Position numbers and translations under genes: made by a program. From Acidobacteriota bacterium (GTDB lineage: Bacteria; Acidobacteriota; CAIWXX01), in contig JBFMAF010000024.1 in assembly GCA_040755995.1 (NCBI GenBank), positions 1-64,000 on the forward strand: a stretch of 64,000 nucleotides of DNA, written 5' to 3'. Below, piece after piece: positions 1 through 57,080 of this stretch (position 1 is the first letter of the stretch; every line of letters begins with the position of its first letter). The notes beneath the pieces were generated by a model that worked only from the letters and a program-made list of their open reading frames with translations, was not told where the DNA came from and searched no databases.

Positions 1-93
1 GCGCTTCCCGCACGGGGGCCTCCCTACCATTATCGCCAGATTCCTCGACGGCTCAAACCCACCAACGCCCGAAACCTATCCGACGATAATGCT

Positions 94-276
94 TCAGATC
101 ACCGACGCAGAGCGCGGCGCCTGACACTTGCGGATAGCGGCTACGAATCGAGCGCGACGTTCGGGGTCGCGGGTTGACAAGTCGATGATGCAATCATTAT
201 CCAGGTAGACCGGACACGTTCCTCTCACGTCAACCACGCAAATGGGCCTACCGTGTTCTGAGTCGAATCGAATCAT
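94..276 (-). other. short hypothetical ORF or gene fragment (60 aa)
   Basis: ATG at 276 with GGAGG-like RBS upstream; MIRFDSEHGRPICVVDVRGTCPVYLDNDCIIDLS...; no family recognised. Confidence 0.25.
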
Positions 277-341
277 TCGTGTCCCTCCGGTAGCGATGCT
301 TGACGACCGCGAGGACCTCTGCCTAGTTGCATAGGGTAGGC

Positions 342-936: not shown

Positions 937-962
937 AGTTGTTCTGACCTGCCAGGCTGCAG

Positions 963-1092
963 GGGGTAGACTGTCTCGGACATGGCCCTTTTCTTCATCC
1001 GCGTGCACTTGTCGCTCATAACACTCCGCCGGGGCATCCCCACTGAGTGTTGGGCACTTTCGCCCCACTTTCTGTCCGGAATAGTCTACCCC
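963..1092. mobile_element. 130-bp MITE-like element with ~20-bp terminal inverted repeats and flanking CTGCAG duplication
   Basis: left GGGGTAGACTGTCTCGGACA, right TGTCCGGAATAGTCTACCCC; CTGCAG at 957-962 and 1093-1098. Confidence 0.7.
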
Positions 1093-1140
1093 CTGCAGTT
1101 AATCAGCCGCTGTCGCTGTTCTCGATCTTGCGCCGGCTCG

Positions 1141-3012
1141 TCATCGTGATGGCGTCGAGAAGAGCTCCAGGAAGATGCCGAAGGTCAGGACGATCATCAG
1201 CAGATCCGTCTCGAACGTCTGATTGATCCGGAACCTGTCGTCGCGGTACATGGTCTTCAGGCGTTCAACAGTGTCGGGATTGAAATATCCCTGTCGTTTC
1301 ACCGTTTCTCTCGACAGCAGATCCTCGATCCAGTCGATGCGGCGGCGCAGCAGGTAGGGGCTTCCGGGTGCGACGAATCCGAACTTGCGGCGATCCGCGA
1401 TCTCCGCCGGCACGCGGCGCCTTGCCACCTCCCTGAGAATGCTCTTCTCGGCTCCATCCCGGATCAGGAAATCCGCCGGTATCGTGCGGGCAAATTCGAA
1501 GAGCCGGGGATCGAGAAACGGATAACGGGCCTCGACCGAATTCGCGTATCCGACACGGTCTCCGTGATCACCGACGAGGTGATCGGCGAGGCGAAGCTTG
1601 AAATCGAGATAGGAGCGCTTGTGCAAGGGGTGACGGCCGGCAAGCTTGGATGTGTCCACGATCCGGGACTGGGTGCAGTCGATTTCGTCGAGGCCCTCCG
1701 CGAGGTCCGGTGCGTAGAGCGCCTGCTTGACCTCTCGAAAGGCGTAGTAATCGCGCTCGTAGAAGAGGTCCGGGTCGTCCCAGAGATCCTGGCGCAACTG
1801 CCGCTCCAGGAGCGCGGCCGGCCCGTTATCCGTCCGCGGCGCGCAGCGGCGCTGCAAATCGAAACGATACCCTACGTATCCCGCGAAAAGCTCGTCAGCG
1901 CCTTCGCCCGTCAGGATGACCTTCAGCCCGTGCGACCGGACCAGCTCGGAGAGAGCCAGCGAGCACGTGTTGTACGACTCCTTGAGCGGGCACTCGTCGT
2001 GGCGGATGACGCGCTTCAGTCGCGTCTCGATGTCGGGCCAGTCGAAGTCGATCTCGTGGTGGCGCGAACCCGCCCGTTTCGCCATCAGCCGCTGGAAACG
2101 ACGCTCGTCGATCTCGCCGTCCCGAAACGCGATGGAGAAGGAGTCGCGGAGAATTCCCGGCGACGCTTCGGTGATAAGCGCGGCGATGAGTGAGGAGTCG
2201 ACACCGCCACTGAGGTAGAACCCAACCGGCACGTCCGCCTGCAGGCGCGCGCGCACTGAGTCCGACAAACAGGCATCCAAGCGCGCCCGGTACTCACCGT
2301 CAGTAACGCGCTCGGAAGGGCAGTCATCTATCGGATAGACCAGGTCCCAATACTCCCGCTTCCACAGTGAGCCGGCGTTCACCTCGATCATGTGCCCGGG
2401 CTCGAGGCTGGAAATACTCCGAAACATGGTCCGCGGGCTGATGAGCCCCGGGAAGGTCAGGATCTGATCGAGACCCAGCAAGTCAACCTCGCGCCTGACC
2501 GCGGGATGCTCGAGGATGGCCTTGATCTCGGAACCGAAGAGGAAGGTATCGCCGGCGGTTGTGTAGAAGAGCGGCGCAATGCCGAAATGGTCGCGGGCCA
2601 GGAGGAGTCTTCCGGTCCGCTGGTTGTAGAGCGCGCATGCGAACTGGCCGTTGAGATTCGCGAGGAAACCTGCTGATGGGTCCTCCTCGAAGAGGTGCAC
2701 CAGCACCTCGATATCGCACCGCGTCCGAAAGACGTGCCCGCGCGATTCGAGTCCCGCGCGCAGCTCGCGATGGTTGTAGATCTCGCCGTTGCAGACGACA
2801 ACGATCGTCCGGTCTTCGTTGAAGATCGGCTGATCCCCGGTCTCGAGGTCGATGATCGCGAGGCGGCGAAATCCGAGCCCGATGCGTCCATCGCGAAAGT
2901 AGCCCTCGCTATCCGGGCCGCGGTGGACGAGCGTCGCGGTCATGGCGCGAAGTAGATCAGGGTCGACACCGCGAGGCTCAGCGAGATTGTAGAGGCCGGC
3001 GATGCCGCACAT
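1141..3012 (-). CDS. asnB: asparagine synthase (glutamine-hydrolysing) family amidotransferase, cluster-associated
   Basis: N-terminal MCGIAG (Ntn Cys), HRGPD, RRLAIID, NGEIYN, LSGGVDSS, TGEGADELFAGY, RYPFLD. Confidence 0.93.
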   Translation of the reverse strand: MCGIAGLYNLAEPRGVDPDLLRAMTATLVHRGPDSEGYFRDGRIGLGFRRLAIIDLETGDQPIFNEDRTIVVVCNGEIYNHRELRAGLESRGHVFRTRCDIEVLVHLFEEDPSAGFLANLNGQFACALYNQRTGRLLLARDHFGIAPLFYTTAGDTFLFGSEIKAILEHPAVRREVDLLGLDQILTFPGLISPRTMFRSISSLEPGHMIEVNAGSLWKREYWDLVYPIDDCPSERVTDGEYRARLDACLSDSVRARLQADVPVGFYLSGGVDSSLIAALITEASPGILRDSFSIAFRDGEIDERRFQRLMAKRAGSRHHEIDFDWPDIETRLKRVIRHDECPLKESYNTCSLALSELVRSHGLKVILTGEGADELFAGYVGYRFDLQRRCAPRTDNGPAALLERQLRQDLWDDPDLFYERDYYAFREVKQALYAPDLAEGLDEIDCTQSRIVDTSKLAGRHPLHKRSYLDFKLRLADHLVGDHGDRVGYANSVEARYPFLDPRLFEFARTIPADFLIRDGAEKSILREVARRRVPAEIADRRKFGFVAPGSPYLLRRRIDWIEDLLSRETVKRQGYFNPDTVERLKTMYRDDRFRINQTFETDLLMIVLTFGIFLELFSTPSR

Positions 3013-3025
3013 TGATCAGTTCCTC

Positions 3026-3088
3026 TTAGAAATCATCGTCGACGTTCGCCAGGCGCTGCGAGAGTGATGTGTATACCCGGTTTCCCAC
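3026..3088 (-). other. 20-codon micro-ORF or remnant (MGNRVYTSLSQRLANVDDDF) resembling the NRPS C-terminal tail
   Basis: GTG start with GGAG 9 nt upstream; RLANVDDDF* versus RLAKVDEDW* at the end of the upstream megasynthase. Confidence 0.45.
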
Positions 3089-3121
3089 ATTCCATCACTC
3101 CACAATCCCGATTGCATGCTG

Positions 3122-6100
3122 TCACCAATCTTCGTCCACTTTCGCCAATCGCGCTCTGAAACGGGCCTCTTCGAGTTGTTCCTCGGCCGGGGCCAGACGC
3201 GCCAGGATCTCAGCCAACGGGATCTCCGGTCGCTCGGCGACCAGCGCGCAGGCCGCCCCGAAGTCGCGCCCAAAGCGATCCACGAGCTCCGATGAAAGCG
3301 CTTCGCCATTGAAGGTGAATTCGATGATGAGTGACGCCCCGGGATATGCGACAACGACCAGGTCGAAGTTCGTTCGTTCGAGCTCGTCGACGCCGTCGAT
3401 CCTGAAACCGAGATCACCGGCTTGCAGTGCGTTGATCAGGGAGGTCTCGAGGGGATAATTCTCGAAGACCACGGCGTGATCGATCAGGCGATTCAAGCGA
3501 CACGCTGCCATGATCTCCCCCAGCGGCGTCGATTGGCGCTCCTGGGCCGCGGTCAGCGCGGCGTGGGTCCTGGCCAGGAAGTCCGCAAATGAGATTTCGT
3601 CGTCGAGGACGTAGCGCATGGGTAGCGTGTTGATGAAGAGTCCCGCCATCTTGTCGACACCGGGGACCTCTGCGGGTCGGCCCGAGACGGTCATGCCGAC
3701 GACGATGTCGTCGAGGCCCGAGTGGCGGGCCAGTACCAGGGCCCAGGCGCACTGTACGAGCGAGCTCAGGGTCGCATGGCGCTCCCGGGTCGCGGCCAGC
3801 AGGCGTCGAGTGAGGTCCTGCGACAAGGTGACGCGGTGGCGAACCGAGGCACGGCCGCCGGCCTCGGAGCGGAGTGAATCCAGCGGCAGGCGCTCCGCGT
3901 CGAAACCCGCCAGGGTCTGCCGCCAGTATTCCAGATCGCCCTTGCCGTCGCGGCGCCGATACCACTCGATGAAGCGGCTCAGCGAGACGGGCGCTTCTAC
4001 GCCGAATACGCGCCTCCCGGCGAGCCGCCCGTAGCCTCCAAAGAGATCCCGCAAGACGGTCATGAAGGACCACCCGTCGAGGATGATGTGATGGAATGTG
4101 AAGACGACCGCATGGTGATCCGCGCCTCGGGAGACAATCCTCAGCCTCATCAACGGATCATGCTGCAAATCGAACCCGCGGCTCAGGTCCTCATTCCTGA
4201 CCCGATCGAGCGCACTGTCGGATGAATCTTCGAGGTGCGTCGTCGTGACAGCGGCTCGTCTCTGCCTGAGAACGACCTGAAGCGGTGAATCCGTCCCGTG
4301 AATGCTGAAGAGCGTCCGCAGGGCCTCGTGCCGATCGACGGTCTCCTGGAAAGCGCACGCCAGCGCGTCCGGGTCGAGTGGACCGGAGAGATGGAGGGTC
4401 ATCTGCTGAAGATACGCACGGTACCTTTCATCCGCCTGCGAGTGATAGAGCATCCCGGCCTGCAGAGGCATGAGAGGGTAAATCTCCTGTACGGCCTCCC
4501 CCGCGAGGCCGCACGACGCGATGAGGCGATCGTGATCATCCTGATCGGGAGCGGAAACGTGTGGCGGGTTCTGCTCGCGAAGATGCGCAGCGATCTCCCC
4601 CATCGCATCGCCGAAGCTCGATGCCAGTGATTCCACCGACGCGTGATCGAACTGCCGCGCGTTGTAGGTGATGGCCGTTTCGAGGCGGTCATTTCTGATC
4701 CAGACGTCGATCTCGAGCAGATGGTTTCGTCTCGAACGTGGATCGATAGTCCCTGGAGCCATCGCGACCACGGGCTCGAAGATCGAATCCTCGAACCTCA
4801 TGTCGATATCGCCCAAGTAATTGAAGACGATCTCCGGGTCCGCGTCGAGGAAGGCCGTATCAGGAGCTCGTGCTCGCATGAAACGCAGGATGCCGAACCC
4901 CGCGCCCTGGTTCGGCACGCGCTCCAACTGGCTCTTGATACTCCGGAGAAGGACGCGGCAATCCGGATCATCGGGCGTCTCCAGGCGGATCGGATACAGG
5001 CTGGTGAACCATCCGACGGTCCTCGTGACGTCACATCCCTCGACCAGATCCTGCCGGCCATGCCCTTCGAGCATGACGAGCACGCTTCGGAGATTCCGCC
5101 AGCGATGAAGTGCCCGGGACAACGCGGCCAGGAGCAGCTCCTGCGTGCGGGCCTGGCGACCATGGAGAAGAAGTCCGGTCTCCTCGCGCGGCATCTGCAC
5201 CTGCACGGCGCGGCAATCCCGAACCAGGTTTGTCTCAGCGTTTCTGTCGAGCGGCAGGCGGTCGCAGGGCCCCGAGAGGATCTCCTGCCACACAGGGAGC
5301 TCTTCCGATAGCTGCTCGGCGGCGGCGTAGCTCGAGAGGCGCGACGCCCATGTCGCAAAGGAGTCGGTGGGGGCGTCGAAGCGAATCTCTTCGTCCCGCA
5401 GCGCGTGCCGGCACGCGGTCTCGAGATCCTCGACCAGGATGCGCCAAGAGACACCATCCACCGCAAGATGATGGATGACGATCAGGAGCGTATCGCGCTC
5501 GGCGCCTCGCAGCAGCGCGGTGCGGATCAGCGGGCCGGTCTCGATGTTGAGACTCGCTTGAAGCTGCAAGATGATGCGGATCGCGTCGTCGCCGGCCGCG
5601 GTCCCCTTGATCGCGTGGACATGACAGCGCGCGGGCTCATCCGCCGCGCCGGGCATCGCGATCCATCCGGCGCCCTCGCGCCGGAACCGCGTTCGAAAGA
5701 TGTCATGAGCTCCAATCACGCGTCCGAGCGCGCGTTCGAGGATCGCTGCGTCGAGACGTCTGCGTCCTGTCAGGAGCACCGCCTGGTTGAAATGGTGCTC
5801 GGTCCCGACATGAGACGCGAAGAACCAGCGTTGAATCGGCGTGAGCGGCCACGCGCCGGTCGCACTGACGGACGCCGGCGCGGCCGCCGGCGCCCCAATG
5901 ACCTTCGCGAGAGTTGCCACGGTGTGACCGCCTAGCAGATCGGGCACCCGGATCGCCAGGTTCAGCCGCCGGCACCGGGCCACGGCCTGGATCGCCTTGA
6001 TCGAGTCCCCGCCCAGCTCGATGAAGTTGTCATGGCGGCTCACGCGCTCGACGCGGAGCAGTTCCTTCCAGATCCCGGCCAGGATCGTCTCTGACTCTCC

Positions 6101-9100
6101 CTGCGGCGCGTCATAGCTCCGGGCGGCAGCGGCCGAGTGTCCGGTCCGCGGATCCGGCAGGGCCTTGCGGTCGAGCTTGCCGTTCGACGTGAGTGGGAAC
6201 CGGTCCATACGGACGAGGTATGAGGGGATCATGTGCCCGGGCAGGACGCGACCGAGCTCCGAGCGCATCGCGGCGGTGTCGAGGGTGTCGGCAACGCAAT
6301 ACGCCGCCAGCACCTTCTCGGTCCCCTCGTCCACCGCCACGACCACGGCCTCGCGCACGCCGTCGATACGGTGCAGCGCCGCCTCCACTTCGCCGCACTC
6401 GATCCGGAATCCGCGGATCTTGACCTGCCGATCCGCGCGCCCTAGGTATTCGATATCGCCGCCGGGTAGGTATCGCCCCAGATCTCCTGTTTTATAGAGA
6501 CACACCCCGGAGCCACCCTGGAACGGATCAGGCACGAACCGCTCTCGAGTCAAGTCGGGCCGGCGATGGTATCCTCGCGCCAGCCCGCCGCCACTCACGT
6601 GAATCTCTCCCGTCGCGCCGATCAGCGCGGGCCGTGCCGACGCGTCGAGGATCTGTATGCCGAGGTCCGGCAGAGGAGTCCCGATGAGGCTCGCCCTGCG
6701 CTCCGCGTCCGACGCACGCACGCGGCGATGCGTGACGTGGACCGTCGTCTCGGTAATGCCGTACATGTTGACGAGTCGTGGGTTCTCGTCTCCGTAGCGG
6801 TCGAACCAAGGCTTCAGCATAGCGAACTCAAGCGCCTCCCCTCCAAATATGACGAGACGAAGCGGTTGGGGAACGATCGGCGCCTGCTCCATTTCCGCGG
6901 CGATGTATTGCCTGAATGCCGCCGGCGTCTGGTTGAGGACGGTGACGTGATCGCGCGCGACGAGCGCGCGGAACGCCTCTGGCGAACGGCTCGTACCGTA
7001 AGGCACGATGACCAGCGTTCCGCCATAAAGCAGCGCTCCCCAGATCTCCCAGACCGAGAAGTCGAAGGCGTAAGAATGGAACAGGGTCCAGACGTCATCG
7101 GCGCGAAAGCCGAAGAGCTCCTCCGTGCCCCGCATGAGGCGCACGACATTGTGATGGGTGATGAGGCATCCCTTGGGGTTCCCGGTCGTGCCGGACGTGT
7201 AGATGACATAGGCGAGATGCGACGGCAGGTTGATTTCGTCAGGGGAGGTGGCGGGGCCGCCGAACGGGGCGCGGACATCGATGACGGCCCTCATGGACGG
7301 CGTCTTGAGATCGAGGAAGCGCGGCTCAGCGATAAGTGCCTTCGCGCAGCTATCCTCGAGTATAAACTCGATCCGCGCGCGCGGACTCTCCGGGTCGATC
7401 GGGACGTAGGCCGCTCCGGCCTTCAGGACGGCCAGAATCGCGACGACCAGGAGTTCAGAGCGATCCAGCAACAGCGCAACCATTTCGTCGGGCTGGATAT
7501 CGCAGCGAGTCCTGAGCGCATGGGCCATTCGGTTGGCGCATTCATCGACCTCCCGGTAGCTCCACCTCTCGTCACCGCAAACGATCGCGGTCGCGTCAGG
7601 CGTCAGCGCGGCCTGCTTAGCGAAGAGAGCGTGGATCGTTGCCTCCGCCGGAATCGAACGGGAGGGGAGACGGAGCCCCTCCCAAGCCTTCCTCTCATCC
7701 TCGGAGCGTGCCTCGATACGCCCGACGGTTTCCTCCGGATTTCCGACGAAGCCTGCGAGGATCGTCTCCAGGGATCCGCTCCACCGCGCTATCGTCTCTT
7801 CACGGAACAGATCCGTCGCGAAACTGAAGTCGCAGAGGAGCTCGTCCGGGTGTTCCAGGACCTGGAGCACCAGATCGCAGATCGCAGCACGGTGATGTAC
7901 CTTCCGGTATGTGAAGTCGAGCCCGGCCGCGCGGAAGGCGGTGGCAGTGGCCACGTCCAGCTCAATCATAGTGTCGAACATCATGTTGCGGCCGGGCTGC
8001 GTCGGCGGCGCGAGCTTCTCGACAAGCGAGCTGAACGGGTAATCCTGGTTATCGTACAGTTCCAGGCAGGTCCTCTTCACCTCGCCGACAAACTTCCTCA
8101 CGCTCAGCCCTCCATTGACCTTCTGCCGCGCCACCAGAGAATTGACAAACATGCCGACAGCATGCCGCGTTTCCTTCAGGTTTCGGCCACCCACCGGTAT
8201 TCCCACAAGCACCTCCTCCTGCCCCGTGAGGCGATGGAGAAGGACCGAGTAGGCTGCGAGAAGAACCATGAAGAGCGTCGTTTCGGTTTCACGCGCGAGT
8301 TCCCTCAGGCCGGCCGTCAATTCCGGGGCGACGCGGCGGAAAACGTGGCCGCCGCCGTGCGTCGGGCGGGCCGGACGCGCCTGGTCGAGAGGAAGTTCCA
8401 GAACTGGAAGATCTCCGGAGAGCTGTTTCAGCCAGTAGTCCTGCTGACGCTCCATCCGTTCGCTACGCCCGTGAGCATCAAGCGCCCGCATGCTGTCGCG
8501 ATACTGGATGGCGACCGGCGGAAGCAACCGGCCCTCATAAAGCGCCATCATTTCCTCCATGAGTACGATGAACGATGTGAAGTCCATGATGATATGGTGG
8601 CTGTCGAGAAGCAGGAGGTGACGTTCCGGGCCGGTCTTGAAGAGGATCGCGCGAAAGAGCGGGGGGCGAGCCAGGTCGAACGGCCGGATCGCAGCCGCAA
8701 GCGCTTCATCGATCCTCGCCTCCTCCGCTTCGCGTCTCTCGATCGAGAAAGCCGGCGCGGGCTCGATCACCTGGACGAGATCCTCATCCTGGATGCGGAA
8801 CCCCGTACGCAGGCTCTCGTGCCGCGCCACAACCTCGCCCAAATAGCGCTCCACCAGGTCCGCATCAAGAGGTCCGTCGATCCAGAACGACTCGGGAAGA
8901 TGATACGCCATCTCGCCGCCGTCCTGCTGGGCAATGGCATACAGTCGACGCTGCACCGAAGTGACGGGCACGACGATCGGCTCCGCGGCGAGGGCCGCGC
9001 CCGATTTCGTACGGGCCCGCGCAGCGCTCAGGATCTCGACCTGCCGGCGGATCAACTGCCGCATCGCCTTCGCGCTCCGGTCGGAGACCTGTTTCAGAGA

Positions 9101-11932
9101 ACGATACTGGGTCTCGAGAATCGCGCGGCATTCCGGATCGCCGGCCAGGCCTCGCGCCGCCTCCGGCAGCTCGCCCAGGAGATCATCGAACGTGGCCCGT
9201 CCGTCCTTCGAAGAACGTCCATCGTAGACGCGGTCGGGATATCCGGAGAGCCAGTATGTCTTCCGCTGGAATGGATACCCGGGGACCGCGACCTTTCTCC
9301 CCTTCTCGACACCGCCCCAATCGATCTCGATCCCCTGCTCGTAGAGCCTCCCGAGCGACTCGAGCAACACCTTGCCGCCATCGCGCCCCGGTGAGAGCGA
9401 CGTGAGCCACGTGATCTCGTCCGATCCCTTCTGCGTCTGCCGGCCGAAGTTGATGAGCAAGTCGCCGGGATCGCATTCCAGGAAGAGATCGTATCCGTCG
9501 CTGATCATGGATTCGAGCGCCGGCCGGAACTGCACGGAGCTTCGGATGTGCGGAATCCAGTAATCCGGGCCGGTCACCTCTTTCGGACCGAGGACGCGGC
9601 CGAAGATGGTGGAGTAGAATGGGATTCTCATGGCCGCGAAGGTGATGCCCGGCACCACATCCCGGAATCGCGCGAGGAGCGGATCGACCAGTGCCGAGTG
9701 GAACCCGTACTTGAACGGAAGCTCGAAGCACTCGATCCGTTCGGCGGCGAGGCGTTCCGCCACGCGACGCACCGCGTCAACCGGCCCCGAAAGCGTCACG
9801 CTCCACGGCGAGTTGTTCCCGGCGATCTCCACGGGCTCGCCGAATCGATCGAGCAGCGGACGAACGCGGTCGACCGGCGCCGCGGCCACGCTGAGAAGCC
9901 CCAGCGGTCTCTTCTCGATGATCTGCTGGCTCGCCTCGCAGATCACCTGCAAGCAGTCTCGGAGCGTCATGATCCCGGCGGCGTACGCGGCCGCGAATTC
10001 GCCCAGGCTGTAGCCGCAGACAGCGGCCGGCTCGACCCCGCATGAGCGCCAGAATCTCAGGAGGCCGTATTGGATGGCAAAGAGGCACGGCTGCACATAA
10101 TCGGCCTCCCGCACCTCCTCGTCCCGGTCGCGAAGCAGCACCGTCTCGACGATGTCTCGCCCTGCGTATTCACGAACCAGGCCACGGCACTCCTCGACCG
10201 CATCGTGAAAGACCCGGTTCGATTCGTAGAGCTGCCGCCCCATCCCGGCGTACTCCGAGCCCTGCCCGGCGAACAGAAACGCGGGCTCCCGCTTGTCTGC
10301 CCGGCGCGGCGCCGGCCGTCGATCCTGCAAGGCTCGAACCATCTCTTCGCGCGTCGCGCCGATGAACGCCCTTCGATGCTCGAAATGGGTCCGGCCCAGC
10401 GCCGCTGTGAAGCAAAGATCCGGCAATGATGGATCCGGCCCGCTCACAATCATGTCGCCGTATGCCTCGGCAAGCTGCGCCATGGCCTCCGGCGCGCGCG
10501 CAGAGAGCGGCAGGATGCAGGGCGTCGTGTCGCGCGGCCCGGTGGGGTCTTCAGGAGGTGCCTCTTCGATGATCACGTGGGCGTTGGTTCCCGAGAAGCC
10601 GAAGGAACTGATCGCGGCCAGGCGGGACCGCTCCTGCCTCTTCCAGGCCACAGCGTGCGATGCGACCGCGAGCGGCGTCGACTCCCAGTCGACATGAGGA
10701 TTGGGCCGGTCGAAGTTCAAGCTGCGCGGGATCTCTTCGTGCCGGAGCGCGAGAACGGCCTTGACCAGTCCGGCGACACCAGCCGCGGCTTCGAGGTGCC
10801 CGATGTTCGTCTTGACTGATCCGACCGGGATCTTCGCCTTGCGGCCCTTGAGAACCCGGGCCAGGGCGAGGATCTCGATCGGGTCCCCCAGCTCCGTTCC
10901 CGTGCCGTGCGCTTCGAAGTAGCCGATCTCGGAGGGATCGACGCCGGCCGCGCGGCAGGCGGCCCGAATGACCGCCTCCTGGGCGGGGCCGTTTGGCGCG
11001 GTCAGCCCGTTGCTGCGTCCGTCGTGATTCACGGCGCTGCCCCGGATCACGGCGAGGATGCGGTCACGGTCGCGGTGGGCATCCGGGAGCCTCTTCAGGA
11101 CGACCATGCCGCACCCCTCCCCGCGCACGTATCCGTTCGCGCCCGCGGCGAACGCGCGGCAGACGCCGTCCGCAGAGAGGGCCTTCACCTTGCAGAGCCC
11201 CACGTAGTGGGACGGCGAGAGCATCAAGTTCACACCTCCGGCCAGGGCCAAGTCGCATTCGCGCCGCGCAAGTGCGGTCGCGGCCTGATGGAGGGTGACG
11301 AGCGACGACGAGCAGGCCGTGTCGGTCGAGAGGCAGGGCCCGTGCAAGTCGAAGGTGTACGAGAGGCGCCCGGCCGCGGTACTGCGCATCGCGCCGGTAG
11401 GGGCGAACGGCGTGATATCCGCCAGCTCCGGGGAATGGATCGTGGACTGGACGTATTCGTCGTTGGTCATGCCCACGAACACGCCCGTGTTGGAGCCGCG
11501 AATCCGCTCGGTGGCGACGCCGGCGTCCTCGAGCGCCTGCCAGGAAACCTCGAGAAGAAGCCTCTGCTGGGGATCCATCGCCTCGGCCTCGCGCGGCGTG
11601 ATCCCGAAGAAACCCGCGTCGAAATCGCCGACACAGTCGATGAAGGCGCCGTGACGTGTGTACATGGTTCCCGGCGCCTCGGGATCCGGGTTGAAATACT
11701 TCTCGACGTCCCAGCGATCCGCAGGTATCTCCGTGACCGCGCACACGCCCCGGCTAAGCAGGTCCCAGAAGCGATCAGGGTCCGAGGAGCCACCCGGAAA
11801 ACGGCAACCCATTCCGATGATCGCGATCGGTTCCTGGCGCTTCAACCACTCGATCTCGGCGGCCTGCTCCCTGATTTTTCGGGAGGCGAGCTCCAGGGCC
11901 TGGCGGTACTTCGATTCCAGGTCGCTGCTCAT
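3122..11932 (-). CDS. hybrid PKS-NRPS: KS-AT(atypical)-linker-C-A(Thr)-PCP-E-C
   Basis: KS DTACSSS/HGTGT/GHLEAAAG; AT GYSLG and YGFHS; C HHIIMDF; A YTSGTTGNPKG with code DFWNIGMVHK; PCP LGGDSI; E HHLAVDGVSW/EGHGR/RTVGWFTSLYP; terminal C HHIILDGWS. Confidence 0.95.
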   Translation of the reverse strand: MSSDLESKYRQALELASRKIREQAAEIEWLKRQEPIAIIGMGCRFPGGSSDPDRFWDLLSRGVCAVTEIPADRWDVEKYFNPDPEAPGTMYTRHGAFIDCVGDFDAGFFGITPREAEAMDPQQRLLLEVSWQALEDAGVATERIRGSNTGVFVGMTNDEYVQSTIHSPELADITPFAPTGAMRSTAAGRLSYTFDLHGPCLSTDTACSSSLVTLHQAATALARRECDLALAGGVNLMLSPSHYVGLCKVKALSADGVCRAFAAGANGYVRGEGCGMVVLKRLPDAHRDRDRILAVIRGSAVNHDGRSNGLTAPNGPAQEAVIRAACRAAGVDPSEIGYFEAHGTGTELGDPIEILALARVLKGRKAKIPVGSVKTNIGHLEAAAGVAGLVKAVLALRHEEIPRSLNFDRPNPHVDWESTPLAVASHAVAWKRQERSRLAAISSFGFSGTNAHVIIEEAPPEDPTGPRDTTPCILPLSARAPEAMAQLAEAYGDMIVSGPDPSLPDLCFTAALGRTHFEHRRAFIGATREEMVRALQDRRPAPRRADKREPAFLFAGQGSEYAGMGRQLYESNRVFHDAVEECRGLVREYAGRDIVETVLLRDRDEEVREADYVQPCLFAIQYGLLRFWRSCGVEPAAVCGYSLGEFAAAYAAGIMTLRDCLQVICEASQQIIEKRPLGLLSVAAAPVDRVRPLLDRFGEPVEIAGNNSPWSVTLSGPVDAVRRVAERLAAERIECFELPFKYGFHSALVDPLLARFRDVVPGITFAAMRIPFYSTIFGRVLGPKEVTGPDYWIPHIRSSVQFRPALESMISDGYDLFLECDPGDLLINFGRQTQKGSDEITWLTSLSPGRDGGKVLLESLGRLYEQGIEIDWGGVEKGRKVAVPGYPFQRKTYWLSGYPDRVYDGRSSKDGRATFDDLLGELPEAARGLAGDPECRAILETQYRSLKQVSDRSAKAMRQLIRRQVEILSAARARTKSGAALAAEPIVVPVTSVQRRLYAIAQQDGGEMAYHLPESFWIDGPLDADLVERYLGEVVARHESLRTGFRIQDEDLVQVIEPAPAFSIERREAEEARIDEALAAAIRPFDLARPPLFRAILFKTGPERHLLLLDSHHIIMDFTSFIVLMEEMMALYEGRLLPPVAIQYRDSMRALDAHGRSERMERQQDYWLKQLSGDLPVLELPLDQARPARPTHGGGHVFRRVAPELTAGLRELARETETTLFMVLLAAYSVLLHRLTGQEEVLVGIPVGGRNLKETRHAVGMFVNSLVARQKVNGGLSVRKFVGEVKRTCLELYDNQDYPFSSLVEKLAPPTQPGRNMMFDTMIELDVATATAFRAAGLDFTYRKVHHRAAICDLVLQVLEHPDELLCDFSFATDLFREETIARWSGSLETILAGFVGNPEETVGRIEARSEDERKAWEGLRLPSRSIPAEATIHALFAKQAALTPDATAIVCGDERWSYREVDECANRMAHALRTRCDIQPDEMVALLLDRSELLVVAILAVLKAGAAYVPIDPESPRARIEFILEDSCAKALIAEPRFLDLKTPSMRAVIDVRAPFGGPATSPDEINLPSHLAYVIYTSGTTGNPKGCLITHHNVVRLMRGTEELFGFRADDVWTLFHSYAFDFSVWEIWGALLYGGTLVIVPYGTSRSPEAFRALVARDHVTVLNQTPAAFRQYIAAEMEQAPIVPQPLRLVIFGGEALEFAMLKPWFDRYGDENPRLVNMYGITETTVHVTHRRVRASDAERRASLIGTPLPDLGIQILDASARPALIGATGEIHVSGGGLARGYHRRPDLTRERFVPDPFQGGSGVCLYKTGDLGRYLPGGDIEYLGRADRQVKIRGFRIECGEVEAALHRIDGVREAVVVAVDEGTEKVLAAYCVADTLDTAAMRSELGRVLPGHMIPSYLVRMDRFPLTSNGKLDRKALPDPRTGHSAAAARSYDAPQGESETILAGIWKELLRVERVSRHDNFIELGGDSIKAIQAVARCRRLNLAIRVPDLLGGHTVATLAKVIGAPAAAPASVSATGAWPLTPIQRWFFASHVGTEHHFNQAVLLTGRRRLDAAILERALGRVIGAHDIFRTRFRREGAGWIAMPGAADEPARCHVHAIKGTAAGDDAIRIILQLQASLNIETGPLIRTALLRGAERDTLLIVIHHLAVDGVSWRILVEDLETACRHALRDEEIRFDAPTDSFATWASRLSSYAAAEQLSEELPVWQEILSGPCDRLPLDRNAETNLVRDCRAVQVQMPREETGLLLHGRQARTQELLLAALSRALHRWRNLRSVLVMLEGHGRQDLVEGCDVTRTVGWFTSLYPIRLETPDDPDCRVLLRSIKSQLERVPNQGAGFGILRFMRARAPDTAFLDADPEIVFNYLGDIDMRFEDSIFEPVVAMAPGTIDPRSRRNHLLEIDVWIRNDRLETAITYNARQFDHASVESLASSFGDAMGEIAAHLREQNPPHVSAPDQDDHDRLIASCGLAGEAVQEIYPLMPLQAGMLYHSQADERYRAYLQQMTLHLSGPLDPDALACAFQETVDRHEALRTLFSIHGTDSPLQVVLRQRRAAVTTTHLEDSSDSALDRVRNEDLSRGFDLQHDPLMRLRIVSRGADHHAVVFTFHHIILDGWSFMTVLRDLFGGYGRLAGRRVFGVEAPVSLSRFIEWYRRRDGKGDLEYWRQTLAGFDAERLPLDSLRSEAGGRASVRHRVTLSQDLTRRLLAATRERHATLSSLVQCAWALVLARHSGLDDIVVGMTVSGRPAEVPGVDKMAGLFINTLPMRYVLDDEISFADFLARTHAALTAAQERQSTPLGEIMAACRLNRLIDHAVVFENYPLETSLINALQAGDLGFRIDGVDELERTNFDLVVVAYPGASLIIEFTFNGEALSSELVDRFGRDFGAACALVAERPEIPLAEILARLAPAEEQLEEARFRARLAKVDEDW

Positions 11933-11941
11933 CGGGCATGG

Positions 11942-14900
11942 TCAGGGGTTGCGGAGCAGAGCATCGATCTGGCCCAGCACGTACTCCGTGGACGAGGTAT
12001 CGACCGGCAGTGCCGCGGCAGGTCCGAGATCGAGCACCTCCGTGAGCATGAAAGCGCTCAGCTTGTTGAGTGTCGGATGATCGAAAAGTAGGGACGCGGG
12101 CAGCGGCTTGGCGAATGCCTTGCTCATGCGGTTGCGCAGCTCCACGGACATCAGGGAGTCGAAGCCCTGCTCGGAAAGCGGGCGGTCGCTCTCGATCGTC
12201 TCGGCGTCGCCATACCCCAGGATGCCTTTGGCCATCTTCTGGAGAAGGCTCAGCATCAACTTTGGCCTCTTGGATTCCGGTGTGTCGGCAAGCTGCTTGA
12301 GAGTATCCGCGGGCGATTCCTTGGCCTTCGCCGGCTCCTCCGCGCCGCCCCTTCCGCTCAGGCCCAGCCGCGAATAGAAGCCCGTGGCCGTCTCGATCCC
12401 GTGCCGCTCGCAGTAGGCGCGCCAGTCGATATCCATTACCCCCGCCTGCACCGGTTGATCCTCGAGCAGGCGCATCAGAACATCGAGGCAGGTCTCCGGA
12501 TCGAGAAGCCTGACCCCCTGCGCCGTCAGCTTCTGTGCAGCGACTCCCGTCGCCATTCCTTCCTCCGCCCACGGCCCCCATTCAATGCTCATGCCGGACA
12601 GTCCGGCGGCCCTCCTGAAGCGGGCGAAGCCGTCCATGAAGGAGTTCGCCGAGGCGTAGTTGCTCTGTCCCGCGTTGCCCAGCAAGGAAGCGATCGAGGA
12701 GAAGCAGACGAAGAAGTCGAGATCGAGCCGCTCCGTTTCCCGGTGCAGGTTCCATGTGCCGGCGACTTTGGGCCGCATCACCGCTTCGAAGCGCCGCTCG
12801 TCCTGCTCGCCGGCGATCCCGTCGTCGAGGAGGCCGGCGGCGTGGATGACGCCGCGCAGCGGCGGGAGCGACGAGGAGATACGCGCCACGGCGCGCGCCA
12901 CGTCGTCGCGGCTCGCGACGTCGCACTGCATCGCCTCGACCGCGCTCGCCCCTCGCATCGCATCGATGCGCGCCATCACCTCGCTGGACGGCGCGCGGCG
13001 CGACGCCAGGACCACCGCGACCGCGCCTGCACCGACCAGCCGTTCGGCGATGCGCAGCCCCAGGGCGCCCAGCCCGCCCGTCACCAAGTAGGTCCCATCT
13101 CTCCGGATCGGCCCCGCTCCACGCGCCGCCTCCCGGCGCACAACTTCTCCCTGGGAGATGATGATCTTGCCGACGTGCCTCGCCTGAGACATGTACCGGA
13201 ATGCGGCCGGAGCATCCTCGATCTCAAAGATCGTTCGCGGGAGCGGGGTGAGCTCCCCGGCCGCGAAGCCCGCGAGCAGTTCCTCCAGCATCTCGCATCC
13301 AAGATCCGGGTCGGCGGCTGCGACCGCGCTCAGGTCGAACGGGTGATACGCGATGGCCGGGTGATTCCGCGCGAGCCAGTCCGGATCGAGGATCTCCCGC
13401 TTGCCCATCTCGAGGAAGCGCCCGCCGGGGGCGAGCAGCGAGAGGCTCTTCGTGATGAATTCGCCGGTCAGCGAGTTGAGGACCACGTCCACACCTTGAC
13501 CGCTCGTGATCCTCCCGATTTTTTCCGCGAAGCTCGTGTCGCGCGAGCTGTACAGGTGCTCAACGCCCATCGAGGAGAGCAACGCCCTCTTGCGATCCGA
13601 GCCGGCCGTCGCGAAGACCTCGCACCCGAGCCGCCGGGCAAGCTGGATCGCGGCCATGCCGACCCCGCCCGCGCCGGCATGCACGAGGACGCGCTCGCCC
13701 TTCTTCAACTTGCCGATGCGCGTGAAGGCATAGTGGGCGGTGAGGAATGCGGCGGGGATCGTGACAGCCTCCTCGAAGGTGAGCGATTCCGGTTTCTTCA
13801 CCGCCTGCCTCGCGTCGGCCGTGACGTACTTGCCCATGCAGCCCGGCGCGCCGAAGAGCATGACCGCATCGCCGGCCTTCAGACGGTCGACACCCTCGCC
13901 GACCGAGGTCACCACGCCACAACAGTCGAAGCCGAGCATTGCGACGTCGCCCGGATACTGGTTCAGGGCCACGAGAACGTCCTTGAAGTTGAGCCCCGTG
14001 GCCCGGACTCGGATCTCGATCTCGCCCTTGCGGGGAACGGTTCTCGGCGCGACGGAGAAGTGAAGCTCGTCGAGGAGCCCGCGTGGGGACTTGTCGAGGC
14101 GCCAGTTCTGGTCCGGGGCGGTTGAGGGAAGGGACAGCCGCGACTCCGCCCGGAGCGCCTCGCGCATCCGCAGAAGCCGTTCGCCGAAGATGCGCCCGCC
14201 GCGGATGGCTAGCATTCGCTCGGGAGAACGGGTCGTCACCAGATCCACAATTTCCTGCACGGCGGCCTCGGATGGATCTTGCTCCAGATCGATCGCGCCC
14301 GCGTGGAGCTCCGGATATTCGATCGCGAGCGTTCGGACGAAACCCCGGATCGCGCTGGCGCGGAGCGAGACACGCGTGTCGGAAGAATCGATGGTCTCCA
14401 TGCCCGTCGTCAGAAACCAGAGGGCCGCGCGGTGCGTGGCCTTCATGCGCACAAGCGCCTGCACGATCGCGAGCGCCTCGCGTCCCATGAACTGCACGAC
14501 CCGATTCGGCAGGTCGTCCTGCGCAGTGTCCTCTCCTCCGATCGCATGGATGATCGAGAAGGAGGCATCCGGATGCACCGCACCAGCCTTCTCGATGAAA
14601 GCGGCGTCGCCATCGTGGTGCGACACGCCGATCCCGGCGCCGGCGAGCTTCGTCGCCACGGCGTCAAGCGACGGCGAACGGTCGCCACTCAGGATGACGA
14701 AGCTCGAACGCGTCTGATCGGAGCGGTGAGGCAAATCCTTCGCGGCGATCTCCTTCCACGCCGGCGCGTAGAGCAGGTTCTCGTGCCCCGCTCCGAGATC
14801 GCGGTACAGCGTCTTGCGGTCGGTGAGCTTGAGGATCATGTCGCGGATCTCGAAGACCTTCCGGTCCGCAGCGTCGCGCACGGTGATCGTGGACTGGAGG

Positions 14901-17900
14901 ATGTCCTTCCGGACCTGGATCCGGTTGTGGCAGGTCAACGGCCCTTCGAGCGGGCCCAGGGCAACGAGTGCCCCCATGGAGAGCGGAATGACGACCCGGT
15001 CGCCCGCGAACATGGTGTCCGCCCGTGGGACGCACACGGGCAGACCGGTCTGGATGAAGGAATCGATCAGGCCAGGGTGCATCAGGAATCCGTCCAGGGA
15101 ATCCGCGGCCGAAAGCTCGCAGAGGATTTCATCGCTGCCGTAGCGGATCGTCTGGATGCGCCGGAAGTTCGGCCCCAGGACATACCCAGCCTTCTCGAAG
15201 AAGCCGTAGAGCTCTTCGATGGTCATGGAGCTCGGGCAGCGCGCCTCGATCTCGGCGCGCGACGGAAGCGGCGGCGCCTCGGGAGCCGAGAAGCTGAGGT
15301 CGGCGGTGCAGTGGGTCACCCAATCATCGGAGGCCGCGTCGTCCGGCCGGCTCACCAGGCGCGCCGCGTTCCGGCCCCCGCCCGCCTCGACGATCAGCTG
15401 CACCACGCGCGCCTGGTCCTCGTCGATCACGAGCGGCTTCAGGAACTCGACGTTCTCGAGCAGGCAGCCGTTGGAAGGACGCAGCGTGCGAGCGGCCGCA
15501 GCCATCATGAAGACGTGCGCGGCGGCGGGCGAGATCATGCGCCCGAGGATCCGGTGCTCCTCGAGAAAAGCGGGGGCTCCGGCCCGGAAAACGTTTTGGA
15601 AGATGACGGCGCCCGGGGCCGCGGGCGTCGTGATGCGACTGCCGAGGACCGGAGACGCAGCCGGGTAGGACGGTCCAACCATACTCGCGGAGGGCCGGCT
15701 GATCGGATCCATGAAGAACCGTTTTCTCTGGAACGGGTAGAGTGGCGCTCTCATCGGGCGGCAGGAGAACGGGCGGTCGAACTCTTTCCAGTCGATCTCG
15801 ACACCCTGCTCGTAGAGCGCGGCGGCCGTGGTACAGATCCGCCGCCAGTCATCCTCCTTCGGCTTGAGGCAGGAGAGATAGCGGCATGACTCGTCCTTGA
15901 GCGTGCTCTGCGCCATGCCGGAGAGCGTCGGGGTGGAACCGATCTCGAGAAAGATATTCGCGCCGGCCGCGCGAAGCGCCTCGACCGTCTTCTTGAAAAG
16001 GACCGGTTTGCGGATCTGCCGGCTCCAGTACTCGGCGGAATTCATCACGCCATCGGGCGCCTCCGCGGCGGCCACGGTGGAGAAGAGCGGCAGGCGCGGC
16101 GGTGCGTAGGTCGCGCCGCGCGCGATGGACAGAAAGTCATCCGCGGCTTTCTCCATGAGCGGAGAATGAAACGCGTGCGAGACCTTGAGCCGCGTGGATG
16201 AGATCTTCCGCTGGGCGAGCGTCGCGATGATGAGCTCGACCGTCTGCTCCTTGCCGGAGAGGATCACGACGCCCGGCGCGTTGATGGCCGCGATCGAGAC
16301 CGTTGCGCGGTTTTCACGCAGCAGGTCCGCGAGCGCCTCTTCCTCGCAGAAGATCGCGGCCATGCTTCCCTTCTCCGTGACGGCCTGCATCAGGCGGCCG
16401 CGGTGAACCACGAGGCGCAGTGCCTCCTCGAGCCCCAGCACTCCCGCCTCGACCGCCGCCGCGTATTCGCCGATGCTGTGACCGGCAAGGAAATCGGGCT
16501 TCACGCCCCACGAGGCCAGCAGCCGGCAGAGCGCATGCTGGATCGAGAAGATGGCTGGCTGGTTGTTGCAGGTCCGTGCCAGTTCCTCCTCGCTGGCGCC
16601 GTCTCCGTAGATGAGGTCGAGGAGAGGACGATCGAGCTCCCTATCGAGGAGCGCGGCGCACGCGTCGAGCGTTTTTCGGAAAACCGGGTGATGCTCGTAA
16701 AGCCCACGGGCCATGCCCACGTACTGGGAACCCTGCCCGGTGAAGAGAAAAGCGATGCGCGGCGCCGGTCGCTCCGCGTCCCGAGACCGCCCGGCATCGG
16801 GCGCATTCACGAGCTCCTTCAGCCGCTCCAGGAGCTCCTCCGCAGTCGCTCCGACAAGGGCCTTGCGCAGGGAGTGATGAGCCCGGCCCGCGGCTGCGGT
16901 GTGGCAAAGATCCGCGGCGGAGAGACTCGGGTTCGACTTGATGAACGCCAGGTACCGCTCGCCAAGGCACTTGACCGCTTCCTGCTTTCGGCCCGAGATG
17001 GGAAGAACGTGAACCGGACGCGCTGGCTTCGCGGCCGCCTGCGCTTCCGGCGGAGCCTCCTCGAAGATCATGAATGCATTGGTGCCGCTGAAGCCGAAGG
17101 AGTTGACGCCGGCGCGGCGCGTCCGATCGCCGCGGGACCATGGCACCGGTTCGGCTGCGATCCTGACGTTCATGTCCTTCCATCGGATCTCCGGATTGGG
17201 GGTCCGGAAGTGAAGCGACGGCGGGATGGCCTCGTGACGGAGAGCCTCGACGATCTTGATGGCGCTGGTCACGCCGGCCGCGGCCTCCAGGTGTCCGACG
17301 TTCGACTTCACCGAACCGACGATGACAGGATGATCCTTATCGTGCCCGTCGTTCATGACCGCGCCGATCGCGTGGAGCTCGATCGGATCGCCGAGCCGGG
17401 TGCCTGTGCCGTGCGCCTCGATGTAGTCGATGTCGGAAGCCTCCAGCCCGGAGCGGGAGAGGACGGTGCGGATCAGCATCTCCTGCGCGCGCCCGTTCGG
17501 CGCCGCCAGCCCCGCACTCCTGCCGTCCTGGTTGACGCCGGATCCGCGGATCACGGCCATGATCCGGTCGCCGTCCTGTCGAGCGTCCTCGAACCGCTTC
17601 AGAACGACGAGCCCGCATCCTTCGCCGCGGCCGTATCCGTCCGCGGACGCGTCGAAAGCCTTGCTGCGGCCGTCGGGCGAGATGTTGCGGAGCTTGGTCG
17701 AGCAGATGTGGAAGATCGGAGAGAGGATGAGACTGACGCCGCCGGCCAGCGCCAGGTCGCATTCCCCGCCCTCGAGCGCGCGGCAGGCAAGATTCATCGC
17801 GACGAGCGAGGAGGAGCAGGCCGTGTCGATCGACATCGAGGGACCGTGAAAGCCGTAGATGTAGGAGAGACGTCCGGCGGCGGGAGAGAGAACGGTTCCG

Positions 17901-18361
17901 GTCAGGGTGTAGGCGTCAATGAGGCCGGGGTCGGGCGCGTGCCGGCTAGCCGCTGCATAGTCGTCCGAGGTGATACCGAGATAGACGCCGGTCTGGCTGC
18001 CCTTGAGCCGATTGATGTCGATGGCCGCGTCCTCGAATGCCTCCCAGCTCACTTCCAAGAGCATGCGATGCTGGGGATCCATCTGCAGCGCCTCGGGCGC
18101 CGGCACGTTGAAGAAGTGCGCGTCGAAATCGTACGGGGATCCAGGGAGGAAACCGGCCCTCTGCGCGTCGGTCTTGCCGGGCGCCGCCGGATCCGGGTCG
18201 TAGAAGTCCTTTGCGTTCCAGCGATCGGACGGAACCTCCGCGGCGGCATCCCGGCCGCTCATCAAGAAGCCGAAGAATGACTCCGGGTCCTCACCTCCGG
18301 GCATGCGGCATGCCATGCCGATGACCGCGATCATGTCGTGGCTGGAATTTGCGTTTTTCAA
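11942..18361 (-). CDS. type I polyketide synthase, single module KS-AT-DH-ER-KR-ACP
   Basis: KS DTACSSS; AT GHSIG plus HAFHS (malonyl type); DH HRILGRMISP; ER HAGAGGVG; KR TGGLGALG, LDD, YASAN; ACP GFDSL; TTG start with GGAGGAG RBS. Confidence 0.95.
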   Translation of the reverse strand: MKNANSSHDMIAVIGMACRMPGGEDPESFFGFLMSGRDAAAEVPSDRWNAKDFYDPDPAAPGKTDAQRAGFLPGSPYDFDAHFFNVPAPEALQMDPQHRMLLEVSWEAFEDAAIDINRLKGSQTGVYLGITSDDYAAASRHAPDPGLIDAYTLTGTVLSPAAGRLSYIYGFHGPSMSIDTACSSSLVAMNLACRALEGGECDLALAGGVSLILSPIFHICSTKLRNISPDGRSKAFDASADGYGRGEGCGLVVLKRFEDARQDGDRIMAVIRGSGVNQDGRSAGLAAPNGRAQEMLIRTVLSRSGLEASDIDYIEAHGTGTRLGDPIELHAIGAVMNDGHDKDHPVIVGSVKSNVGHLEAAAGVTSAIKIVEALRHEAIPPSLHFRTPNPEIRWKDMNVRIAAEPVPWSRGDRTRRAGVNSFGFSGTNAFMIFEEAPPEAQAAAKPARPVHVLPISGRKQEAVKCLGERYLAFIKSNPSLSAADLCHTAAAGRAHHSLRKALVGATAEELLERLKELVNAPDAGRSRDAERPAPRIAFLFTGQGSQYVGMARGLYEHHPVFRKTLDACAALLDRELDRPLLDLIYGDGASEEELARTCNNQPAIFSIQHALCRLLASWGVKPDFLAGHSIGEYAAAVEAGVLGLEEALRLVVHRGRLMQAVTEKGSMAAIFCEEEALADLLRENRATVSIAAINAPGVVILSGKEQTVELIIATLAQRKISSTRLKVSHAFHSPLMEKAADDFLSIARGATYAPPRLPLFSTVAAAEAPDGVMNSAEYWSRQIRKPVLFKKTVEALRAAGANIFLEIGSTPTLSGMAQSTLKDESCRYLSCLKPKEDDWRRICTTAAALYEQGVEIDWKEFDRPFSCRPMRAPLYPFQRKRFFMDPISRPSASMVGPSYPAASPVLGSRITTPAAPGAVIFQNVFRAGAPAFLEEHRILGRMISPAAAHVFMMAAAARTLRPSNGCLLENVEFLKPLVIDEDQARVVQLIVEAGGGRNAARLVSRPDDAASDDWVTHCTADLSFSAPEAPPLPSRAEIEARCPSSMTIEELYGFFEKAGYVLGPNFRRIQTIRYGSDEILCELSAADSLDGFLMHPGLIDSFIQTGLPVCVPRADTMFAGDRVVIPLSMGALVALGPLEGPLTCHNRIQVRKDILQSTITVRDAADRKVFEIRDMILKLTDRKTLYRDLGAGHENLLYAPAWKEIAAKDLPHRSDQTRSSFVILSGDRSPSLDAVATKLAGAGIGVSHHDGDAAFIEKAGAVHPDASFSIIHAIGGEDTAQDDLPNRVVQFMGREALAIVQALVRMKATHRAALWFLTTGMETIDSSDTRVSLRASAIRGFVRTLAIEYPELHAGAIDLEQDPSEAAVQEIVDLVTTRSPERMLAIRGGRIFGERLLRMREALRAESRLSLPSTAPDQNWRLDKSPRGLLDELHFSVAPRTVPRKGEIEIRVRATGLNFKDVLVALNQYPGDVAMLGFDCCGVVTSVGEGVDRLKAGDAVMLFGAPGCMGKYVTADARQAVKKPESLTFEEAVTIPAAFLTAHYAFTRIGKLKKGERVLVHAGAGGVGMAAIQLARRLGCEVFATAGSDRKRALLSSMGVEHLYSSRDTSFAEKIGRITSGQGVDVVLNSLTGEFITKSLSLLAPGGRFLEMGKREILDPDWLARNHPAIAYHPFDLSAVAAADPDLGCEMLEELLAGFAAGELTPLPRTIFEIEDAPAAFRYMSQARHVGKIIISQGEVVRREAARGAGPIRRDGTYLVTGGLGALGLRIAERLVGAGAVAVVLASRRAPSSEVMARIDAMRGASAVEAMQCDVASRDDVARAVARISSSLPPLRGVIHAAGLLDDGIAGEQDERRFEAVMRPKVAGTWNLHRETERLDLDFFVCFSSIASLLGNAGQSNYASANSFMDGFARFRRAAGLSGMSIEWGPWAEEGMATGVAAQKLTAQGVRLLDPETCLDVLMRLLEDQPVQAGVMDIDWRAYCERHGIETATGFYSRLGLSGRGGAEEPAKAKESPADTLKQLADTPESKRPKLMLSLLQKMAKGILGYGDAETIESDRPLSEQGFDSLMSVELRNRMSKAFAKPLPASLLFDHPTLNKLSAFMLTEVLDLGPAAALPVDTSSTEYVLGQIDALLRNP

Positions 18362-18390: not shown

Positions 18391-18448
18391 CGTAGCCGCC
18401 GGCTTTGGCCTGCGCCCCACCGGACGCGGGCTAAAGCCCGCGGCTACG
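18391..18448. repeat. GTAG-type REP-like inverted doublet / long hairpin
   Basis: cGTAGCCGCCGGCTTTGGCCTGCG...CGCGGGCTAAAGCCCGCGGCTACg. Confidence 0.7.
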
Positions 18449-23071: not shown

Positions 23072-23092
23072 ACGCAGAGGAGTCAGAGCACA

Positions 23093-57050: not shown

Positions 57051-57080
57051 GCCCGTGCCTCCAACAGCCACCGAGGCGGA

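Follow-up and report, generated by a model that had tools for sequence, protein, structure and literature searches.

A probably truncated and remodelled beta-amino-lipopeptide assembly line with an AsnB-type amidotransferase in an Acidobacteriota genome

In the puwainaphycin (PuwB and PuwE) and iturin-family (MycA) assembly lines, as set out in the consulted part of PMC4219810, one fully reducing polyketide synthase (PKS) is followed by a hybrid in which a PKS module and an aminotransferase precede nonribosomal peptide synthetase (NRPS) domains. Here we analysed a window of 64,000 nucleotides from an Acidobacteriota bacterium (assembly GCA_040755995.1, contig JBFMAF010000024.1, positions 1 to 64,000; genome G000, contig C24 in our numbering), which begins at a contig end and contains three genes, coding for PKS1, a PKS-NRPS hybrid and an AsnB-type glutamine amidotransferase, that descend from this layout. 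Compared with the puwainaphycin and iturin lines, the window has no FAAL/ACP starter, methyltransferase, monooxygenase or thioesterase, the acyl carrier protein (ACP) domain and the aminotransferase are lost from the hybrid, and asnB is added. The locus is probably a remodelled and truncated beta-amino-lipopeptide PKS-NRPS line, which is probably incomplete here. On balance, we favour the view that it represents the front half of a larger line from which the amino-acid-forming module was deleted, and that it likely hands a reduced fatty chain to threonine and then likely stalls. As the later genes are missing from the assembly, a finished product is unlikely.

The three minus-strand open reading frames (ORFs; Table 1) are uninterrupted, and the approximately 17 kb that they cover are free of frameshifts and retain the catalytic motifs. 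PKS1 and the hybrid gene are separated by 9 bp, and the hybrid gene and asnB by 109 bp. Pfam searches assigned the domain order KS-AT-DH-ER-KR-ACP to PKS1, KS-AT-C-A-T-C-C to the hybrid, with no carrier domain between the AT and the first C, and GATase_7 plus Asn_synthase to the third protein; the middle "C" of the hybrid is an epimerization (E) domain according to our tree. The original prediction, made from the sequence alone, had described three closely spaced, co-oriented genes with these domains and had noted that no thioesterase, reductase or phosphopantetheinyl transferase (PPTase) is encoded with them; the ORF calls, Pfam and the tree confirmed all of this, and one Sfp-sized PPTase (248 aa) is instead encoded on contig C21 of the same genome. 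Neither a FAAL/ACP starter nor a release or cyclising domain was found at the locus, which holds a single NRPS module, and no downstream modules were found in the assembly.

Complete versions of the cluster, which we refer to as parent clusters, are present in 4 of the 35 genomes of another phylum (Table 1); the closest locus is that of G1206. They comprise a starter gene coding for KS-(decayed AT)-ACP, which takes the place of a FAAL/ACP starter, a PKS with the order KS-AT-DH-ER-KR-ACP, a hybrid of 5255-5737 aa with the order KS-AT-ACP-aminotransferase-C-A(Thr)-T-E-C-A(DVRH)-T-C-A-T-E, in which the first E is absent in G1206, a further NRPS (C-A-T-E), and a hydrolase with a beta-lactamase fold (beta-lactamase/fn3) and a signal-like N-terminus; a thioesterase is absent. 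The last two A-domain codes resemble Phe and Tyr codes. An ABC exporter is encoded nearby, SPFH and PPTase genes were seen in three of the stretches fetched, and ABC and/or SPFH genes flank all four clusters. Orthologues of PKS1, of the Thr hybrid and of asnB are thus all shared between the window and this family, with the same gene order and an identical Thr code, at identities of 44-47% for the PKS (three of the clusters), 57-62% for KS2, 38-48% for C1, 44-47% for the A domain and 57-59% for AsnB; asnB is found in all four parent genomes, in three of them in the same locus. In contrast to the parents, the window is without the starter gene, the ACP, the aminotransferase, the three later modules, the hydrolase, the exporter and the PPTase. 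The arrangement KS-AT-ACP-aminotransferase-C, which marks beta-amino lipopeptide lines and is shared with puwainaphycin and iturin, occurs in all four parents and not in the window, although trees and alignment show that the KS and C domains of the window hybrid descend from such a module. The parent is apparently a complete, undescribed lipopeptide family; protein P0246 of Magnetospirillum fulvum probably belongs to it as judged by sequence, and no Magnetospirillum genome was found among 400 alphaproteobacteria. The original prediction of a minimal new system was therefore mostly not upheld, as these relatives reveal a deleted, truncated version of a larger cluster; that the locus might be a remnant of a larger known cluster, which had been named as the outcome that would speak against novelty, is largely what we found, except that the larger cluster is itself uncharacterised rather than a named one.

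An alignment of the hybrid with the four parents shows that the ACP and the aminotransferase are gone as two separate in-frame deletions and that the helix between them is retained. This Gln-rich helix, which in the parents lies between ACP and aminotransferase, is here flanked by both deletions; against G1206 it gave a local score of 62, which none of 1000 shuffles reached. The linker alone had no Pfam match up to E 0.05, and together with the parent alignment this excludes a decayed ACP. A single-sequence fold of AT*-linker-C was unusable (mean predicted local distance difference test score of 41). The hybrid ends after its second C domain and so corresponds to the front half of the parent protein, and relative to the parent the starter gene and the docking helix of PKS1 are lost as well.

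The same two deletions around a retained helix are found in protein P0003, which has the layout KS-AT*-helix-C-A(Thr)-T-C, without E, and is 72% (KS2), 56% (AT*), 70% (C1), 74% (A) and 68% (C2) identical to the window hybrid. Protein P0243 is an orthologue of PKS1 (63-82% identity by domain; 77% for KS1 and 82% for AT1), likewise lacks the docking helix and has relatives at at least 90% identity in further records. As the records of both proteins list two contigs, the longest of 87,780 bp, P0003 and P0243 likely occur together in one second organism. The ACP-less layout is not a fresh break, to judge from its recurrence in that organism at roughly 70% identity. This is the part of the non-canonical architecture claimed originally that survives. 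Because the KS identity among the parents runs 4-14 points above that of the A domain, constraint appears mildly relaxed on KS2 and strongly relaxed on AT*. The layout is rare: a linker profile run against 1.84 billion representatives retrieved only the window's own 50% cluster at E <1e-10 and three weak unrelated matches, a metagenome scan for the AT*-C junction gave 43 loci with no orthologue (best 38%) and did not reach the contig of P0003, and in a plasmid collection the 15 matches listed for AT*-C did not exceed 34%. No orthologue of the PKS1 DH region was found in 400 genomes of its own phylum (one match at 27%) or in 400 genomes of the phylum of G063, a genome considered below. In the open literature no description of the cluster or of an ACP-less KS-AT-C fusion was found; MIBiG, supplements and subscription journals lay outside the search, so one may be missed.

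Within the edited line, PKS1 has a TTG start and no N-terminal docking helix, the KS keeps its Cys-His-His residues, the DH, ER, KR and carrier motifs are intact, and the AT is malonyl-type (GHSIG..HRG, VSHAFHS). Its KS groups with the PKS of G1206 and with P0246 (support 98). KS2 of the hybrid also keeps Cys-His-His. AT*, on the other hand, differs from all four parents, where GHSIG..ERG and VSHAFHS stand in place of GYSLG..EAS and YGFHS; the serine is kept in GYSLG, the conserved Arg is changed to Ala and HAFH to YGFH. The lost arginine is the malonyl-binding residue, and AT* likely no longer loads malonyl. GYSLG is not a defect per se, since it is also present in an AT that has the Arg (L098).

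The first C domain (C1) is the sister of the post-aminotransferase C of G1206 (support 98), which rules out descent from a FAAL-type starter C, yet it carries HHIIMDF instead of HHxxxDG. Among 170 distinct C domains, HHxxxDF occurred in eight, namely in 4/4 that follow FAAL-ACP, in 0/24 that follow an aminotransferase and in 0/74 that follow an A-T module, where two of the eight cases had been fetched by that motif and two others are the window and P0003. According to the consulted part of PMC7804268, the Gly of the C-domain HHxxxDG motif makes room for the donor. Its replacement by Phe may retune or impair C1. The A domain has the code DFWNIGMVHK, identical in all four parents, which is a Thr code, and its best PDB matches include ObiF1 and Thr1, both Thr-activating. 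The A, T and E domains are predicted to give D-allo-threonine, so that the Thr specificity and D-configuration proposed in the original prediction both hold. The second C domain (C2) falls in a clade of post-E C domains of the D-donor type (support 92), and its acidic tail resembles those of C domains upstream of asnB and a discrete A(DVRH)-T gene at loci L013 and L015; C2 looks like a hand-over domain rather than a release domain.

The amidotransferase has an intact N-terminal Cys and SGGVDSS motif and scores 445.7 bits with TIGR01536, above the NCBIfam cut-off. In a genome scan, from which 80 of 532 relatives were taken, 15 were 51-58% identical to it. NRPS genes adjoin all 15 of these loci, in 12 a C domain terminates the NRPS gene that precedes asnB, and for 11 an A domain coded DxRHxAxxxK is found in the locus or genome; in the four remaining loci the sequence breaks off at a contig or locus end. 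Next to asnB of this clade there are often genes for a racemase and a methylaspartate mutase. The loci compared also include a McyE-like A domain with the related code DPRHSGVVGK, and McyE links glutamate through its side chain. From the co-occurrence with DxRH-type A domains, this related code and the McyE linkage, we infer that an Asp/Glu-type residue linked through its side chain is the substrate of this AsnB, which would amidate the residue's free carboxyl. No description of these codes was found in the open literature. Production of a malonamyl starter, as in glutarimide pathways, was rejected as the clade context is NRPS. As this clade accompanies a different A domain, amidation of a Thr terminus is unlikely; of the N-acyl-D-(allo)threonine amide originally proposed as product, the N-acyl-D-allo-threonine part remains plausible as an intermediate. 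In ten loci (L003, L005, L007-L010 and L012-L015), which span Acidobacteriota, Bacteroidota and Pseudomonadota, we observed a unit made up of a terminal C, an often fused methylaspartate mutase, asnB, a racemase and an A(DxRH)-T gene, and its composition suggests a dedicated (methyl)isoasparagine cassette.

Based on these comparisons, we propose that PKS1 would start the chain from an acyl unit of primary metabolism and reduce it fully, and that its C-terminal ACP would dock on the putative docking helix at the N-terminus of the hybrid. KS2-AT* would then serve as a dock or acyl relay rather than as an extender, so that the deleted module is bypassed. In the next steps, C1 would make N-acyl-Thr, the E domain would convert it to the D-allo-Thr form, and C2 would pass the chain on to an A(DxRH)-T protein from another gene. 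This protein would carry an acidic amino acid linked through its side chain, and AsnB would amidate the free carboxyl of that residue. Neither such a partner nor a release enzyme is present here, and insertion-sequence activity most likely removed them. The loss of the AT* arginine together with a C1 motif of fatty-acyl-accepting C domains suggests a natural module bypass, which we favour because AT* is decayed (56% identity to P0003, compared with 82% between the PKS1 AT and P0243) and C1 carries the DF motif. Several observations weigh against this proposal. KS2 keeps its catalytic residues and its 72% identity lies near the 77% of KS1, as if it were still condensing, and the literature search brought up no case in which an ACP feeds a C domain past an idle KS-AT. 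The DF tally is small and contains two cases fetched with the motif, and the Gly-to-Phe change could simply impair C1. No asnB was tied to the 87,780-bp contig among the best 120 of 3776 matches. Finally, downstream genes could exist unbinned, as absence from the assembly is not proof of absence in the organism, and in G063 and G1226 parts of such clusters sit on other contigs. That a natural line with two domains excised mid-module still works, with KS-AT*-helix-C docking either an upstream ACP or a separate ACP-aminotransferase cassette that feeds C, giving a plain N-acyl or a plug-in line, and that the parent too is a lipopeptide family not yet described, whose AsnB amidates on-line, has in our estimate slightly less than an even chance of being true as a whole.

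The alternative that survives best, and which we nevertheless regard as unlikely, is a split pathway, in which a stand-alone ACP-helix-aminotransferase encoded on contig C38 of G000 (Table 1) would plug into KS2-AT*-C in trans, perhaps via the Gln-rich helix that both parts have retained and loaded by another AT, so that a beta-amino acyl-D-allo-Thr would still be made, the later modules being lost or unassembled. This gene, located in the same genome, encodes precisely what the hybrid has lost, its 4-bp overlap with the stop of a racemase gene resembles an evolved operon, and KS2 is catalytically intact. Stand-alone forms are rare (of 19 other matches, just one has an open frame <1,200 aa, and it lies behind a KS-AT gene), the ABC and/or SPFH genes near it also flank all four parents, and the C38 racemase is closest to racemases beside this asnB clade. 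Moreover, scraps of asnB as well as of the C38 aminotransferase gene occur in the sister genome G001 at 88-90% nucleotide identity, and G002, which has a C36-type cluster, has neither. The phylogeny points the other way, since the C38 aminotransferase does not group with the parents (support 100 and 96) and is 57-58% identical to those of other clusters compared with 51-53% for the parents, although forcing it into the parent clade, at a cost of 13.85 log units, is not rejected (p = 0.10, approximately unbiased test). In addition, AT*, the natural loader, is decayed, the window helix matches the C38 helix no better than shuffles do (187/1000), and the C38 piece opens with a beheaded radical-SAM gene and may be a relic of another cluster. 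The piece itself (G000:C38:24300-31800; L162:9304-16776) contains this beheaded B12 radical-SAM gene, the Asp/Glu racemase, the ACP-aminotransferase, a peptide ABC exporter and SPFH and DUF697 genes. In G001, asnB and C38-aminotransferase scraps (82-90%) lie in unrelated loci on contigs C15, C267, C349 and C227 (L187, L200-L202), several beside a shared short repeated element. In G580 (C11:26279-33078; L230:11280-18079) an ACP-KS-AT-AT gene is followed by a stand-alone ACP-aminotransferase, with no NRPS in the stretch fetched.

A compact pathway, in which the three genes suffice and the chain is either released by C2 through transfer to a free amine or an AsnB-made amino acid or amidated by AsnB as acyl-D-Thr, is more doubtful still. 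The three genes are intact and tightly linked, terminal C domains can reportedly release onto free amines, as is said of putrescine in glidonin, and a hybrid of G063 that terminates with a C domain precedes asnB and transport genes, without any NRPS gene; but G063 has an A(DVRHMALLAK) gene on another contig, C2 corresponds to an internal C of the parent and has the hand-over tail, and debris and the contig end lie past asnB. Least probable of all is a dead relic crippled by deletions and decaying without function, for while the degenerate AT, the changed C1 motif, the lost starter and tail, the mobile debris on both sides, the mere scraps in G001 and the lack of an orthologue in 400 genomes of its own phylum and 400 of that of G063 would fit, 17 kb without a frameshift and with all catalytic motifs kept, the same remodelled layout in a second organism whose proteins differ by about 30%, and the relatives of P0243 at at least 90% speak against it.

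Insertion-sequence debris makes up the approximately 1.1 kb after asnB (Table 1). Neither this debris nor the contig end at the start of the window had been noticed in the original prediction. A 142-bp element with 26-nt terminal inverted repeats lies 42 bp past the asnB stop, a truncated IS481-like transposase remnant is 87% identical to a longer copy on C41, and the contig breaks off within a collapsed repeat that is also found at the ends of C21 and C49. No contig of the assembly is shorter than 10.7 kb, and many of them stop at repeats. When the later modules of the parent were compared with the G000 assembly, the sole matches, with at most 34%, were to the unrelated C36 cluster; beyond such matches, the A(DxRH) module and the two aromatic-type D modules were not found in G000, nor was the beta-lactamase-fold hydrolase (best match 27%), and the assembly may be incomplete. 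The C36 cluster (G000:C36:199481-258245) is a large FAAL-PKS-NRPS cluster with an orthologue in G002. Two of its A domains are of the DxRH type, one of its genes begins with A-T, its C and thioesterase are split, and it also codes for a penicillin amidase. We rejected it as the missing half, since it has its own starter and thioesterase and the orthologue in G002 occurs without this asnB.

Table 1. Features of the locus in the window, parent clusters and the stand-alone aminotransferase gene.
Feature	Position	Strand	Basis or remark
PKS1, KS-AT-DH-ER-KR-ACP	11942..18361	-	ORF and Pfam; 2139 aa
Hybrid, docking helix-KS-AT*-helix-C-A(Thr)-T-E-C	3122..11932	-	Pfam, parent alignment; 2936 aa
AT*	9383..10282	-	motif comparison with parents
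Linker with Gln-rich helix	8978..9232	-	parent alignment, shuffle test
C1	7688..8977	-	tree, motif tally
A + T + E	4553..7627	-	Pfam, A code, tree
C2	3125..4480	-	tree, tail comparison
asnB-type glutamine amidotransferase	1141..3012	-	Pfam, NCBIfam; 623 aa
142-bp element like a miniature inverted-repeat transposable element (MITE)	957..1098	.	26-nt terminal inverted repeats
IS481-like transposase remnant	328..936	+	homology to C41 copy
Contig end in collapsed repeat	1..133	.	common to ends of C21 and C49
27-nt palindrome	18391..18448	.	directly upstream of PKS1, position of the parent's starter gene
Parent cluster	G1206:C7:70500-108000
Parent cluster	G1218:C2
Parent cluster	G1226:C32
Parent cluster	G1230:C3
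Stand-alone ACP-helix-aminotransferase	G000 contig C38 26341-28197		618 aa

Upstream of PKS1, the palindrome is a REP-like element, and it is followed by a gene (18506-20155, minus strand) for a secreted-looking alpha/beta hydrolase (TAP-like) with a GC content at third codon positions of 0.62, which is probably a separate insertion. As a release enzyme this hydrolase was rejected, given its signal-like N-terminus, its third-position GC content of 0.62 compared with 0.79-0.84, and the lack of a match in the parent loci. Further along the window we noted seemingly shortened MacA/MacB-like exporter genes (22433-23716) and three B12/radical-SAM-like frames, two of them short, plus a glycosyltransferase (25064-25924, 28822-29616, 29370-30509 and 30466-32079). 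A beta-lactamase-family serine hydrolase (50895-52280) and a CheA/MCP/CheR chemosensory set (54573-61651) are unlinked to the cluster. A promoter and terminator scan gave nothing informative.

A described case of a module without its own carrier is module 10 of pateamine, a KS-KR without ACP that is proposed to use a separate ACP (consulted part of PMC7157528); it differs from the window in being trans-AT, in resting on a proposal only and in having no C domain fused behind. The consulted parts of PMC10204066 and PMC13252402 contain no closer match. Taken together, the locus offers a clean case of natural assembly-line editing for which the unedited parent is known: the deletions can be placed exactly, the helix between them is preserved, the AT has decayed and the donor motif of a C domain has changed. 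Module skipping and rescue in trans where a PKS meets an NRPS can thereby be tested directly, which is of interest for engineering. The analysis also revealed a complete lipopeptide family that is apparently undescribed and a large clade of AsnB enzymes associated with a single type of A domain, even if the prospect of obtaining a new small molecule from this genome is poorer than originally hoped.

Two further known systems share parts of this organisation. Loci L108-L119, which by size and layout we take to be microcystin McyE/McyF, have the order KS-AT-ACP-aminotransferase-C-A-T-C, ending in C and adjoining a racemase, with the DxRH-related code mentioned above; compared with them, the first residue in the window is Thr with an E domain, the ACP and aminotransferase are deleted, asnB is present and the other genes are unrelated. 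The window differs from the colibactin ClbN/ClbB type, a line for N-acyl-D-Asn prodrugs, in that it has a Thr code instead of Asn, takes its acyl chain from a dedicated PKS and has no linked ClbP-type peptidase, but ClbN is likewise a C-A-T-E-C protein making an N-acyl-D-amino acid, the next protein starting with A-T, which is the split proposed here for the window.

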